This document shows, one piece after another, positions 40,893 through 49,430 of a stretch of 64,000 nt of DNA. The stretch's first letter is position 1; the number at the start of each line of letters is the position of its first letter. The translations under genes and the position numbers were made by a program. The notes beneath the pieces were generated by a model. The model was given only the letters and a program-made list of their open reading frames with translations. It was not told where the DNA came from and did not search any database. This DNA comes from a plasmid, in sequence record NZ_CP069398.1; one strand, 5' to 3'.

Positions 40893-41690
40893 ATGCTAGC
40901 AATGCCTGAAATAAATTATATCAAACATTTAAGGGAGAACGAAGACTTATCTCTGTCTGAGATTGCAAGAAAGACAGGTAAAGATTGGAGAACAGTAAAA
41001 AAGTATGCAGATGGAGACGTTCCCACAGGTAAAATTGGATATCGAAAAAGTGGAATGATGGTTGAGGACGGTTATGGTGAGATTATCGATGATTGGTTAG
41101 AAGAAGATCTAAAGGTAAAGAAAAAAGAAAGAAGAACCAACAAAGTTTTATTTGAACAACTACAGAAAGAACATGGGTTTCCAGGGTCTTATCGAACAGT
41201 ATGTGAATATATTCAGCATCAAAGACCGCAGGTTAAAGAGTTAAAGACTAAACGTTATGAGCGATTAGAACACCCTCCGGGTGAAGCCCAAGTGGATTTT
41301 GGAAACATGACAATCGTACAAAATGGAGCATATAAAGATATTAAGGCTCTTATTTTAAGTTTTCCGTACAGTAACGCAGCATTTGCATACCCATTACCGG
41401 CTGAAAATTCTGAGTGTTTTCTTGAAGGCCTAACCAGATTGTTTCATCAAGCTGGTGGTGTCCCAACACACCTTAGAATTGATAACTTAACTGCAGCCGT
41501 TGTGTCCATTGGAAAAAGTGGCAAAAGGATTTATACAGATGCTTTTTTAGGATTTCAATCTCATTATCGTTTCGAGATACAGGCTTGTAATCCAGCCAGT
41601 GGACACGAAAAAGGAAATGTAGAAAAGAAAGTCGGATATACAAGGGGTAGCAACAGCGTAGCTGTCATTACCCGCAATAAACTGTATTAA
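40893..41690 (+). pseudogene. IS21-family transposase IstA, N-terminal fragment truncated by Tn3-family transposon insertion
   Basis: HTH N-terminus (LSLSEIARKTGKDWRTVKKY) and IstA-like GHEKGNVEKKVGY; reading frame runs into transposon IR-L at 41644 and terminates; no istB follows. Confidence 0.6.
41644..41684. repeat. Tn3-family terminal inverted repeat (left)
   Basis: Starts GGGG; matches right end in inverted orientation. Confidence 0.8.
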
Positions 41691-42394
41691 ATTGGGAAAT
41701 TCTTAATGGCGTCATTATAATGATTTTGGGCTTCTTCAATAGCTAATCTCGAGTATACCTCTAAGGACTTTCTACTCTTATGTCCTGAATAGGGTTGAAT
41801 TAATGCATCATCTATACCTTGTTTTTTTAACCAGGTTAAAAGGAAATGTCTTAGCATATGAGGAGAAATATTTTGAGTCAATCCAGCTGCCTCTGAGTAC
41901 TTTGATAAAATTTTTCTGATTCCTCTATCTGTGTACTTCTTATTCCATGAAGACTCAAATAAATAAATAGCATGTTTATTTTTCATATTAATGCAGTGCA
42001 TTGCCAATAATTCTTTAAAAGAATCAGGAAAAGGGACAATTCTATCCTTTTTCCCTTTTCCTTGATTAATTCTAATCTGGCATCGGTCAAAGTCTATATC
42101 TGTAAGCTTTATATTTATTAGTTCACTAACCCTAACTCCGGTATAAAGAAGGGTTCTAATAATCATCATGTCTTGGAAATTTTTTGCTTTCCAAACAACT
42201 TCATAATAACGTCTAAGTTCTTCTTCAGTTGGTATATAGGGAAGCTTTTCTGATTTTTTTGGTATCTCTACTTCTAATTCCTCACGTAGATGTTGAAATA
42301 CCTTTTTTAAATAATCATAGTCTGGACGCTCACTTCGTAGATATTTAGCAAGTTCCTTAGCCTTCTTTTTTGCTGATGTTCTTTTTAAATTCAT
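41687..42394 (-). CDS. tnpI: tyrosine site-specific recombinase (TnpI-like resolvase of Tn4430-type transposons)
   Basis: Phage-integrase C-terminal catalytic region [10 protein letters not shown]...[13 protein letters not shown] (R..HxxR...Y); overlaps tnpA stop. Confidence 0.7.
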
Positions 42395-45375
42395 GCAGAA
42401 TCCACCTCTATTTTCAATCGTTCAGACATATCCAATTTAAAGATTCCATAAGGATTTACATGGGTGTAAATTAATGGAGTTAAAGCCCGAAGATCTTCAG
42501 GTGTCATCCTATCAAACCATGCATTTTCAGATAAAATATTTTGTATCATTAAAGTATTAATATACACTAAACAGTTTTGAAGTAAATGTAAAGATAAAAC
42601 GGCTATTTCTTGATCCTCTAACCGATTTGTTGCTATTTCTCCACCTTTTCCATAAAAGATAAAACTGTTTGCAGAGTTCCAATTTTCAACAACATTTAGC
42701 CCTTCGTGAATTTCCCTTCTAATTTCTTCGGAATCGAGGTATTCACATAGAAAAATGGTTTTAATGGCTTTGCCTAGTTCTGCAAGTGCCTGATATGTCG
42801 GGTGCTTTAAATTATTTCGAGTAAAACGCTTTAAAATCGCCTCAGTTTCTGCCGTTCCCAAGCGTAATGCAGTAGCATATTTGACCATTTGATCATATTG
42901 CTGCCGGATTAATTCCCAGTTAATTGGCCTAGTCATTACCGGTTGTAAATTGGGATAGGTATCTGTCATACCTACATCCGGTCGGTACAATTTTTGACTA
43001 TGGATAGACTTTAATCTTGGCATTAATTGAAATCCAAGAAGGTGGCAAAATGCAAAAGCAACTTCACTTTGACCATGGGTATCGACATAGTTTTTTTGAA
43101 GATTCATATCAGTACAATGACGAAGTAATCCTTCAATCATCGATGCAACCTCGGATGATGAACAGGACTTCAACTGGGAGTAAATACAGGTTGAATTTTT
43201 TGCAACATGCCAATAAATCATAACACCACGGCCACGGTATCGTATATGCCATTCGGTCATCAAATTTTGATCCCACGCTCCAAACTTCTTAGAATCTGAT
43301 GCACAGGCAGTTGTTCCTTCTCCCCATATTTCTTTGATTTTACAACGAAAAATAGCATTTACGACCTCTGCAATTGCATTACGTAAATTATCCTTTTGTA
43401 TAAACTTTTTTCGAATATATAATAGATCGTTATATTTTTCTCCGTGTTCTCCTGCTGAAACCCGTTTAAGACCAGCATTTGTTCCTAGACCATATAATGT
43501 AAGGATCAATCTTTTTTGAATGGTTGCCCTATCGAGAATTTCTCTATTACCAACTGTTTTAAAATGATCTGTAAAATTGATTCTAAGATCAGCTTCTTTC
43601 AAAATATCCAGTAAGTTTGTCATTGGCCAACGCTTCATAATTTCAGCTTTTAAGCGTGATAGGTTTATTGGTTCTGGTAGTGGTTCATATGGTGATATTG
43701 ATATCCAACCATTTCCTTTTGTTGTAATTCGGACTTGAGAATTTTTAGGAATTCTCTCATTTAGTTTTTCTAAGGATTTGATCATCTTCTGTTTAATACT
43801 CAAAATAAATGCTTCTGCATCAAGTGGCTGGTTTAAAGCTTTGTAATTTTCTTCTCTTCGCTCTTCAAAATCTTGTGGCAAATCCTCATCTGGATTTCGA
43901 TATCGATCAGAACCCACTACCCAAATTTCCTTGCATCGAAGCTTGTCCCGTAATGCTTGTAAAGCACTGATTTCATAATTTATTCGGTTTATTCGTTCCT
44001 GGCCTTTGTCGTCTTTTTCAACTACAATTTCTTTATTAACAGAACGAATAACTCCGTTGATTGGAACATTTTCTGTTATTGGAAAGTAATGAAAGCCAGT
44101 TTCAGCGTACTTTTTAATCAATCCAAGCGCCTCAATCACTGGACGGTGAACCTCGTTATTAGAACGAAAATCAAGAATATTTAAAATTTCAGGAACCATC
44201 CTGCGATAATGATTACCATAGGAAGCCCGAATAACCGTATGAATTTTCTCACGATAGGCCGGTCCAGTATGTTTGAATTCCTTTACTAAGTCTTTTAAGG
44301 TTTGCTCATTAACTATAGGATAAAGAACTTCGCGAATTATTCCTTCTGGATTATCAACTGCTGCTTGAGCAAGATTGAATAAAATGCCATATTTGTTATT
44401 GACTTTCCGTAAATCATTTAGTATTTCTTTTTCAACCTTTCGCTCGGCACGTACATTAATTCGATGAATGATTTGGATCAGCAGTTCAATGAGGTTATCC
44501 GTGATTTCTAAGCTCCGAAGCCAAAAGAATGAGGATAATAAGGTGTAGCGAATTGGTTCGGGGTGTCGTCTTAATGAGCGAATATCCTCTGTGGCAGCTC
44601 GTAGCCGATATTTTTTAATAATTTTTGGAGGAACATCTTTAAATAAATCTTGAGGTAAGTTGAGTTGACGGATGGTATTCAATTTTTCTAGTTCCTTAAA
44701 TACGGTATCTAACCCAACTCGTCCTGGATCTGATTTTAATTCATGAAAAGAGATGCTTTTTTTAGATACTGATGTCTCCTCTATAGTATCTTCAATATCT
44801 TCAATTCTTTCAATCAATGAATCAAGCTTTGTTAGTGTTTGTTTTGGTAAACTTTTATATATAGCATCAAAAAAACGTTTTTCATAGGTGTTAATGGCGG
44901 AATGAATAAGGCGTTCTATCCGATCGGGAGTCGGTGGTTCGATTCTAAGATCGCGAAATCTTTGATATACTTGCTCCTCTACATAATTCATTTCATGATT
45001 ATGGTATAGAACAAATTGACAAAGCCAATTAATCATTTCTTCAATGTCTTGTTGTGTAATTTCCCGAAAGCCAAAATAATTACGTATTTCTGAACGATGA
45101 TAAGTAATCGTTCTGCCTGTCCAATCATAATTACTAAAAGCACTTGGGTTCAAAAATAATTGCTTTGCTAAAAACTCTATAAAAGATCTTGGTAATTCAT
45201 TTTTATAATACGGAAATCTTGCTTCGTATTGAAAAAATTTAAACAAAACGGCAAAGCCAAGTTTTGAATCACCTCTCTTTGTTTGAATAAGCTTCATTTC
45301 ATCGGGCGTCAATGTAAAGTGTTCTATTAATTCTTCTAACTCCCAGTTCCTTTTCAAAACATATTCTCCCCTCAA
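42391..45375 (-). CDS. tnpA: Tn3-family transposase TnpA
   Basis: 994 aa; N-terminal DUF4158-like region; size and architecture of Tn3/Tn4430 TnpA; non-ATG (TTG) start likely. Confidence 0.85.
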
Positions 45376-49309: not shown

Positions 49310-49389
49310 TTAAGTAACAAGCCCTATAGAAAAACAGAAATGGCTTAAAGTTAAAACTTTAAGCCATTTCTCAATTTTACATATATTTA

Positions 49390-49430
49390 CTGTTTATTGC
49401 GGGTAATGACAGCTACGCTGTTGTTACCCC
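49390..49430. repeat. Tn3-family terminal inverted repeat (right)
   Basis: CTGTTTATTGCGGGTAATGACAGCTACGCTGTTGTTACCCC, reverse complement of left IR with 3 mismatches. Confidence 0.8.

Follow-up and report, generated by a model that had tools for sequence, protein, structure and literature searches.

A complete Tn3-family transposon with a predicted bacimethrin operon on plasmid NZ_CP069398.1 and the probable origin of its unmatched flanks

The 64,000-nt plasmid stretch from sequence record NZ_CP069398.1 that was analysed here (the window, to which all coordinates refer) contains a transposon unit of 7,787 bp (41644-49430) bracketed by 41-bp terminal inverted repeats. It encodes a Tn3-family transposase (TnpA), a tyrosine recombinase and, behind a thiamin pyrophosphate (TPP) riboswitch, a cargo operon predicted to make bacimethrin. 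The 5-bp target duplication that is a feature of the Tn3 family is present for the identical element in the contigs L083, L084 and L118 but absent at the window copy, whose flanking pentamers are TACAA and TTCAA, unmatched as the initial annotation had already recorded; they differ at one of five positions. This raises the question of how an intact transposon came to lie between unmatched flanks. We consider that a second transposon-mediated event explains them, with a probability of roughly 85%. The duplication is missing because the two ends of the intact transposon touch two unrelated ancestral loci, each with its own native pentamer, namely the istA gene of an IS21-family element on the left and the leader of an msmX-like gene on the right.

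The sequence GGGGTAGCAACAGCGTAGCTGTCATTACCCGCAATAAACTG stands at 41644-41684 and direct comparison finds its reverse complement at 49390-49430. The left and right inverted repeats (IRL and IRR) are identical at 39 of 41 positions, the mismatches being at positions 7 and 40, which corrects an earlier count of three. The similarity continues to 41 of 43 positions and then decays, with a weak likeness out to about 60 nt, and the first 38 nt, used as a query, found no further copy in the 64-kb window at up to 10 mismatches. Repeats of about 38 bp that start with GGGG are a membership feature of the Tn3 family; the 41-bp repeats have this form and their consensus is kept in relatives. The repeats, TnpA, the recombinase and the cargo genes were all found within 41644-49430, in agreement with the first description of the unit as a complete Tn3-family element with cargo.

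The tnpA gene can be read from its first TTG, at 45375, which gives the 994 aa originally reported (42391..45375). The likelier start is the TTG at 45357, giving 988 aa, because the ribosome-binding site (RBS) GAGGGGAG precedes it, relatives start with MKRNWE and the NCBI protein has 988 aa. TnpA aligns over its full length with the cryo-electron microscopy structure of Tn4430 TnpA (7qd4/7qd8), for which the published catalytic residues are D679, D751 and E881 (PMC9579193). In the alignment these correspond to D694 (in ACASDSKKF), D765 (in NYVDTHG) and E897 (in GLNVVENW), in the numbering of the 994-aa form, so that the DDE triad, the presence of which had been left to be checked, is intact.

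Moreover, the same element occurs in other places. An exact-sequence look-up found an identical TnpA on 18 contigs, many of them 7.77-7.90 kb long, the unit's own size, which looks like the pattern of a repeat collapsed by short-read assemblers. Copies with 99.8-100% identity are present in at least six other contexts, in several Bacillaceae genera. L083 and L084 contain the whole element (99.8-99.9% identity) with about 54 bp of flank on each side and a perfect TATTA duplication, their junctions (marked here and below by a slash) reading ...CCCTC TATTA/GGGG...CCCC/TATTA TTATAC, and L118, a contig of 38.5 kb, places this TATTA site in a chromosome, between rnj (RNase J) and trkA. Unrelated DNA was also found next to IRR in four further contexts and next to IRL in three. 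The check that had been proposed, that the repeats should be found as termini elsewhere with a 5-bp duplication, is thus answered by the TATTA site in these three contigs together with the other unrelated flanks. Records for Heyndrickxia sporothermodurans, Pallidibacillus pasinlerensis, Bacillus thermotolerans and 'MULTISPECIES Bacillaceae' include annotated proteins identical to the element's own, and the neighbouring MsmX protein is Priestia-specific; the element has therefore moved between genera recently. The host of the window copy is a Priestia, of the Bacillus megaterium group.

The features that define the family at the sequence level (a DDE TnpA, GGGG inverted repeats and a 5-bp duplication elsewhere) are all present, and it is nearly certain that 41644-49430 is a genuine mobile Tn3-family element. 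The unit is complete and recently active. The true copies came from exact-protein look-ups: no TnpA more than 82% identical was found in species-representative genomes, and no whole-element copy was found in the plasmid collection, the only matches there being a 79% match to the fourth cargo gene, a HAD/NUDIX fusion, on a Clostridium estertheticum plasmid, and a distant tnpA. The reconstructed empty TATTA site had no match in the plasmid collection, the site itself being chromosomal (L118), and the inverted repeat was not found in viral contigs. Contig ends inside repeats were rejected as a guide to copy number, since a 32-bp exact inverted stretch alone breaks assembly graphs at k=31. From what is known of the Tn3 family, TnpA would bind the 38-41-bp GGGG-ended repeats and link the 3' end of each to a target cleaved with a stagger of 5 bp, replication would next yield a cointegrate, and the co-translated 235-aa tyrosine recombinase would resolve it; a replicative mechanism is suggested for this element by that analogy.

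At the left end, 40752-41643/41645 of the window matches an IS21-family element without a difference over the first 892-894 bp of the latter. The intact element, consisting of istA (501 aa) and istB, is found on Priestia megaterium and B. cereus plasmids and reads on past the junction as ...TACAA/GGAATAATTT, that is ...GGATATACAA/GGAATAATTTC (...TATACAA/GG). The window istA starts at 40893 and its frame is cut after about codon 250 of 501 (match to NF033546 at positions 3-239 of 294), and the remainder of istA, istB and the 3' half of the IS21 element are nowhere in the window. The initial annotation had placed the left repeat within istA, with no target-site duplication and with neither an istA remainder nor istB at the other end, and the 100% match to the IS21 element up to 41643 agrees with it. 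A GNAT acetyltransferase gene (40263-40751) is in turn interrupted by the IS21 element, about 111 bp before the normal stop of the gene, which creates a fusion open reading frame of 136 aa (40389..40799); the intact GNAT protein has 157 aa in L104 and the window lacks the rest of the gene on its 3' side. The IS21/IRL junction is also present in an independent read set, SRR25463610 (L102).

The sequence L102 covers exactly 35522-41672 at 100% identity and ends inside IRL. Its stop at 35522 suggests another repeat boundary, which is not repeated within the window.

At the right end, IRR stops 18 bp upstream of the ATG of msmX, so that only the RBS is kept of a native leader of 209 bp. In ten genomes whose MsmX is identical, the alignment with the window sets in at exactly 49431 (97-99.7% identity from there on), and none of the ten has the element at that site. 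These Priestia genomes read ...AAATCTCTGG/TTCAAGGGGGAGAAAGTAATG at the junction, the intact msmX leader being ...CTCTGG/TTCAAGGGGG, and in 10 of 10 the operon upstream is MFS-permease-permease-binding protein-ThuA-GFO/IDH. This thuA/GFO sugar operon is nowhere in the window. Together, the ten-genome msmX comparison and the intact IS21 element support the earlier suggestion that a second event, either an adjacent deletion or a recombination between elements, followed the insertion.

The event that we favour is an adjacent deletion: in an intramolecular replicative transposition the intervening circle would have been lost, and with it the remainder of the IS21 element, the 3' portion of the GNAT gene and the sugar operon (thuA/GFO). 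The slight preference for this deletion over recombination between copies comes from the recombinase, which does not differ from that of other copies, and from its candidate site, which is without lesion, so that a cointegrate should have been resolved. Several points weigh against the account given here. Within the 64 kb there is no second copy or reciprocal junction and deletion and recombination are inseparable there, and the IRR/msmX junction was not recovered in an independent data set. TACAA and TTCAA share four of five positions, which is superficially like a decayed duplication. In addition, Tn3-family target immunity should disfavour intramolecular events. As regards the contents of the element, the candidate resolution site is assigned by conservation only and bacimethrin is predicted from sequence.

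Almost as likely as the deletion, although still tentative, is an exchange between two full copies, one in the IS21 istA gene with a TACAA duplication and one upstream of msmX with TTCAA, which would produce junctions identical to those of an adjacent deletion and exactly those observed. Its route could have been RecA-dependent recombination, a recombinase crossover at the resolution site, or the fusion of two Priestia plasmids in a cointegrate that stayed unresolved, the last of these being opposed by a recombinase identical to that on many contigs and by the undamaged candidate site, with which resolution is expected. The element is multi-copy or multi-site in public data and both flanks resemble mosaic Priestia plasmid DNA, as such an exchange would have it. 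Moreover, strains of Priestia megaterium have numerous plasmids, under target immunity copies on separate replicons are favoured rather than an intramolecular attack, and two relatives and the copy L119 are likewise without duplications. The exchange predicts reciprocal junctions elsewhere in the genome, ...AAATCTCTGGTTCAA/GGGGTAGCAACAGCG and CGCTGTTGTTACCCC/TACAAGGAATAATTTC, the reciprocal copy having the flanks ...CTCTGGTTCAA/IRL and IRR/TACAAGGAATAATTT, but neither these nor the second copy are found in the 64-kb window.

An assembly chimera, in which the left flank of one normal copy was joined to the right flank of another across the 7.8-kb repeat, is improbable. Short-read assemblies do break at the element (contigs of about 7.77-7.9 kb), L102 ends inside IRL, the 7.9-kb contig L119 also has unmatched flanks, and the missing independent recovery of the IRR/msmX junction would suit an error of this kind. 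Nevertheless the window is continuous over 64 kb, the occurrence of the element and MsmX proteins on one 188-kb contig suggests that the repeat was spanned, and the normal copy upstream of msmX that a chimera supposes was not seen in the ten genomes with identical MsmX.

Less probable again is a single insertion into a pre-existing truncated-IS21/msmX junction, the true duplication having been point-mutated later. The match of the pentamers at four of five positions speaks for it, as does the relative L002, which also has a pair of this kind (AATTT/TATTT), but this reading requires an earlier deletion with its end precisely at the point of insertion and a mutation that happened to restore the native base. 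It was rejected, as each pentamer is native to its own ancestral locus, TACAA to the IS21 element and TTCAA to the msmX leader. The likeness of the two is best explained by the AT-rich target preference of the clade; by a rough estimate the chance of a four-of-five match between AT-rich pentamers is about 5%. Finally, one-ended transposition from a single inverted repeat, which is known for some Tn3-family members and had been named as an alternative, or a decayed immobile relic, can be dismissed as extremely improbable, because both repeats are present and match at 39 of 41 positions, the unit has the same size and sequence as copies with a perfect duplication elsewhere, and none of the reading frames is broken, their products being identical to proteins in other genera.

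Table 1. Features of the transposon and its surroundings in the window, followed by the bases adjacent to the ends of other copies
Feature	Position	Strand	Length, matches and remarks
IS21-family element, 5' 892 bp (left flank)	40752..41643	+	100% identical to intact Priestia and B. cereus plasmid copies
Left flanking pentamer TACAA	41639..41643		IS21 sequence
IRL	41644..41684		starts GGGGTAG; terminus kept in relatives
Tyrosine recombinase, presumed cointegrate resolvase	41687..42394	-	235 aa; PF00589 1.4e-31
tnpA, Tn3-family DDE transposase	42391..45357	-	988 aa; NF033527 948.7 bits (cut-off 500), PF01526 1.4e-142, DUF4158
Candidate resolution site 2, proximal	45378..45407		AAGTTCC-N16-GGAACTT, 30-bp core-like inverted repeat just upstream of tnpA RBS
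Candidate resolution site 1, distal	45465..45506		TCTATAAGTTCC-N18-GGAACTTATAGA, perfect 12-bp inverted repeat; heptamer pair 45470-45501
TPP riboswitch aptamer	45559..45669	+	RF00059 79.8 bits against gathering threshold 54.3, E 6.9e-15
Intrinsic terminator hairpin, riboswitch expression platform	45709..45734	+	
bcmB-like cytidine monophosphate (CMP)/hydroxymethyl-CMP N-glycosidase	45761..46216	+	151 aa; PDB 4jen 1.6e-50, MilB 4jem 1.8e-48, BlsM
bcmA-like CMP 5-hydroxymethylase, thymidylate-synthase fold	46229..47233	+	334 aa; MilA 5jnh 8.4e-101, full length
bcmC-like class I S-adenosylmethionine methyltransferase	47260..48015	+	251 aa
HAD-IIA phosphatase-NUDIX hydrolase fusion	48068..49309	+	413 aa; fourth gene of block
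Hairpin, 16-bp stem, likely terminator	49336..49371		between cargo operon and IRR
IRR	49390..49430		identical boundary in L083, L105, L114, L115, L118, L119
Right flanking pentamer TTCAA	49431..49435		native msmX-upstream sequence
msmX/ugpC-like ABC ATPase	49449..50588	+	neighbour, outside element
Copy L116, IRL			adjacent bases AAGTA
Copy L117, IRL			adjacent bases TAACT
Copy L105, IRR			adjacent bases TGATA
Copy L114, IRR			adjacent bases AATAG
Copy L115, IRR			adjacent bases ATATA
Copy L119, both ends			adjacent bases TAGTT / TGGGA, no duplication

The position of the right end also bears on the neighbouring gene. Judging from this layout, msmX expression would have to rely on read-through or on a promoter inside the transposon end, because IRR lies so close upstream that only the RBS is left and the hairpin at 49336-49371 precedes IRR. 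The loss of the native leader and of the thuA/GFO operon may have altered this expression.

The recombinase gene lies 2 bp from IRL and its start overlaps the stop of tnpA as ATGA. The residues of its box motifs were assigned by eye, by locating the motif strings without an alignment, as R88, the Lys in GKGKK (K113-116), H179, R182, H205 and Y214. The name TnpI-type recombinase that it had been given is suitable in the functional sense only, as the protein is no closer to TnpI than to Xer proteins. It shows 27.4% identity to the annotated Tn4430 tnpI product (pHT73, HD-771) over residues 52-215 (E 7e-10) and matches some Acinetobacter plasmid recombinases better (35%); Xer matches are about as good as TnpI, and the best NCBIfam model is that of archaeal XerA, below its cut-off. 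By these comparisons it is not an orthologue of Tn4430 TnpI.

A non-coding stretch of 385 bp separates tnpA from the cargo genes. Here the motif AAGTTCC/GGAACTT occurs four times upstream of tnpA as two inverted pairs, which form the candidate sites 1 and 2, about 92 bp apart. The pattern AGTTCC-N15-20-GGAACT has two matches in the 64 kb, both at the candidate sites, compared with 0.01 expected. In 14 relatives both sites have kept their place and their sequence, with site 2 in every case just upstream of the tnpA RBS. Each site can be interpreted as an 8-bp centre with arms of 11-12 bp on either side, which resembles the core site of a tyrosine recombinase; no direct-repeat pair was seen there. 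Cointegrates are probably resolved at this putative two-repeat site between tnpA and the cargo. The proximal repeat may also have a second function, and autoregulation of tnpA via site 2 is probable because this repeat stands just upstream of the tnpA RBS.

The nearest described elements with such a recombinase are Tn4430 and Tn5401, which share with this element a place in the Firmicute part of the Tn3 family, GGGG inverted repeats of about 38 bp, 5-bp duplications, a DDE TnpA of about 1000 aa, a single tyrosine recombinase (not a serine resolvase) co-directional with tnpA, and four recombinase-type motifs in the resolution site, which is here a putative one. The differences are in the arrangement. 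Among 190 curated Tn3-family members a tyrosine recombinase is found only in Tn4430, Tn5401 and TnBth4, all with the order irs-tnpI-tnpA (PMC7157771), whereas the order here is site-tnpA-recombinase with the ATGA overlap. In Tn4430 the IRS (internal resolution site) has an IR1-IR2 core with a 4-bp spacer and, in addition, the direct repeats DR1-DR2, in contrast to the two inverted pairs with heptamer gaps of 16 and 18 bp found here. Moreover, Tn4430 TnpA is distant from the TnpA of this element (267 bits), and Tn4430 has no cargo whereas the present element has a biosynthetic one. In orthology, gene order and site architecture alike, the element departs from the TnpI/IRS module and its resolution module is therefore a distinct variant, common in genomes. 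A short Xer-like recombinase downstream of tnpA and overlapping it, with a candidate site of two inverted repeats, is not among the resolvase arrangements of the 190 curated members (PMC7157771). The literature searched gave no description of a tnpA-then-tyrosine-recombinase resolution module and no named Tn3 element with a tyrosine recombinase in megaterium.

The order tnpA then recombinase, which had been pointed out as differing from that of Tn4430 and Tn5401, was confirmed and is not peculiar to this copy. TnpA relatives are encoded at 81 loci, at least 25 of which have a 235-aa recombinase, 70-87% identical, directly after tnpA. The loci with such a recombinase are from Bacillus, Paenibacillus, Brevibacillus, Neobacillus, Desulfosporosinus, Nostoc and other genera. 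The clade is widespread in Bacillales, Clostridia and cyanobacteria. The inverted repeats have the consensus GGGGTAG(T/C)A(C/A)CAGCG..., and the cargo always lies between one inverted repeat and the 5' side of tnpA. Perfect 5-bp duplications are present in seven of the nine relatives with both ends visible (TAATT, TATTA, TATAT, TATTT, AGCGA, TTTAA and CTATG); of the other two, L002 has the pair matching at four of five positions and the last has none. In Priestia plasmid relatives with a 73% identical TnpA, an upstream serine resolvase is found in place of the tyrosine recombinase, an instance of the modular resolvase exchange known before in the Tn3 family.

The closest relatives are unnamed Bacillales elements on a Paenibacillus bovis plasmid (NZ_CP021170) and in Bacillus thermotolerans SGZ-8 (L003), with TnpA 76-82% and recombinase 79-87% identical. 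They share with the window element the inverted-repeat consensus, the two-part candidate resolution site, the cargo placement and the 5-bp duplications, but the cargo of the P. bovis element consists of arsenic and cadmium resistance genes. The B. thermotolerans transposon (6452-13723 of L003; TnpA 82% identical, TAATT duplication) is a sister element, homologous to 41643-45749 and 48056-49430 of the window. It keeps the TPP riboswitch and the HAD/NUDIX gene, and an IS110-family transposase occupies the place of bcmB-bcmA-bcmC, so that the bcm genes were either replaced there or inserted in the window element. In Bacillus sp. FJAT-47783 (L105, 8181-12160) there is a 98%-identical remnant that corresponds to 45440-49431 only. 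It holds part of the distal site 1, the riboswitch, the cargo and IRR, with no tnpA and no recombinase, and its IRR abuts a truncated resolvase/HTH_7 gene. On a 92-kb contig (ERZ1030361; L114, 2004-3965) the gene for a 200-aa serine resolvase runs into the beginning of a 99.9%-identical HAD/NUDIX gene, behind which IRR stands; this looks like a hybrid with a different Tn3-family module. A further locus, L088, has an internal deletion of the cargo. From these four variants the element is evidently under ongoing reshuffling.

The copy L119 (GCA_036963365.1) fills a contig of 7,892 bp and its two ends are TAGTT and TGGGA. It is either rearranged like the window copy or a collapsed multi-copy repeat.

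What had been described as a cargo operon inside the repeats consists of four plus-strand genes (45761-49309) that do stand behind a TPP riboswitch. A terminator, behind which come a T-run, an RBS and then the first cargo gene, lies 40 nt downstream of the aptamer. Its 5' arm, CCACUUCCUA, can alternatively pair with the 3' strand of the aptamer helix P1, UAGGAAAGUGG, forming an anti-terminator. By this predicted pairing the riboswitch is of the classic OFF type with mutually exclusive terminator and anti-terminator, and bacimethrin synthesis would switch on at low cellular TPP.

The first cargo protein has as a structural match 4jen, which was deposited as a CMP N-glycosidase and which we take to be C. 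botulinum BcmB. It contains the motif FLAGPFK with Lys, and the Lys in that motif distinguishes BcmB (PMC4081090). The second protein falls below every NCBIfam thymidylate-synthase cut-off and is predicted to have CMP 5-hydroxymethylase activity like BcmA. The third shares 68% identity with the methyltransferase that the Paenibacillus apiarius thiaminase I/bacimethrin operon encodes and 39% with its counterpart in a further thiaminase-linked cluster; its gene is always directly after bcmA. The cluster P0267 was considered as the C. botulinum bacimethrin cluster and rejected, being a different thiaminase-linked cluster. According to the passages of PMC12345177 and PMC5627462 that describe Cooper et al. 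2014, the pathway runs from CMP to hydroxymethyl-CMP, 5-hydroxymethylcytosine and bacimethrin. The product of the cargo operon is, on these similarities, likely to be bacimethrin, a thiamin antivitamin.

Comparison with described pathways points in the same direction. Bacimethrin operons are known from Clostridium botulinum (bcmA/B/C) and, with thiaminase I, from P. thiaminolyticus and P. apiarius, and the Paenibacillus gene order is that of the element, including the 413-aa HAD/NUDIX protein. The P. apiarius operon reads thiM-thiD-thiE-glycosidase-hydroxymethylase-methyltransferase-HAD/NUDIX-thiaminase I. The Paenibacillus operon has been described as carrying bacimethrin genes under a TPP riboswitch, a form of control common to it and to the element (PMC5627462). 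Unlike this operon, the block of the element stands alone, with no thiaminase I, thiD, thiM or thiE, and unlike the known bacimethrin operons it is bounded by transposon ends and moves between genera as a unit. The same four-gene block is found in a Clostridia genome (L109) and in Bacillus sp. FJAT-47783. MilA and MilB of mildiomycin and BlsM of blasticidin S synthesis, from Streptomyces, belong to pathways whose first two steps, from CMP to hydroxymethyl-CMP and 5-hydroxymethylcytosine, are as in the element. The element is without genes for peptidyl-nucleoside tailoring and a methyltransferase follows instead, which fits bacimethrin rather than mildiomycin.

The HAD/NUDIX fusion has structural relatives of a generic kind only, which are NagD and p-nitrophenylphosphatase-type HAD-IIA proteins and MutT-type NUDIX proteins. 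Its gene is syntenic after bcmC in L105, L109, L110 and L111. This constant linkage to bcmC, along with its being kept behind the riboswitch in the B. thermotolerans variant, ties it to thiamin or bacimethrin metabolism. It may hydrolyse phosphorylated methoxy-pyrimidine or methoxythiamin species and so protect the producer, and a role in self-protection or in precursor supply is a matter of speculation.

A bacimethrin-type cluster of another kind, with the order thiD-thiE-HAD-NUDIX-bcmB-bcmA-bcmC-thiaminase I-permease-tenA, was seen at 519-8560 of L122 (Logan ERR13982483). In it HAD and NUDIX are encoded by two genes that are not orthologues of the fusion, and the cluster was set aside as independent support for a HAD/NUDIX role, being a weak analogy. 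A phosphatase and a pyrophosphatase may have been recruited to the bacimethrin pathway more than once. The copy of the element in GCA_035787375.1 (L116, 7789-15574) has an operon for thiamin salvage, tenA-thiE-thiM-thiD-thiW, at a distance of about 4 kb, perhaps by coincidence.

Other repeats in the window lie outside the transposon. Two direct-repeat pairs of about 1.2 kb, 20847-22046 with 27918-29117 (93%) and 24683-25857 with 29122-30296 (91%), point to a segmental duplication upstream of the transposon region. At the right window edge there is a 181-bp inverted repeat with 98% identity (62473-62653 and 63820-64000), which may represent the ends of another mobile element cut by the edge.

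Passenger genes of many kinds are already known for the Tn3 family, and the parts of this element worth pursuit are its cargo and its resolution module, the "anomaly" of the flanks being ordinary. The missing duplication is an expected Tn3-family rearrangement scar and marks the loss or relocation of a sugar-uptake operon beside msmX. No report of a riboswitch-controlled antivitamin pathway as Tn3-family cargo was found in the literature searched, in which bacimethrin is treated without transposons. Here a compact predicted pathway for a thiamin antivitamin, with its own TPP riboswitch, travels as transposon cargo that is 99.8-100% identical across genera. The element could account for the patchy distribution of bacimethrin genes, and its cargo is a ready-made 3.9-kb cassette for asking when and why cells use antivitamins.

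Taken together, the element can tentatively be seen as an active Tn3-family transposon that is a self-mobile, vitamin-sensing antimicrobial weapon, with riboswitch-gated bacimethrin and a HAD/NUDIX protein that is possibly protective, now spreading among Priestia, Heyndrickxia, Pallidibacillus and Bacillus thermotolerans. If this holds, tnpA followed by an Xer-like tyrosine recombinase, with a site of two inverted repeats, would be a fourth arrangement of Tn3-family resolution systems. Antivitamin production would be a horizontally transferable and strain-variable trait. Moreover, the element would provide a genetic basis for bacimethrin production in Bacillus (Priestia) megaterium, the species from which bacimethrin was first isolated.

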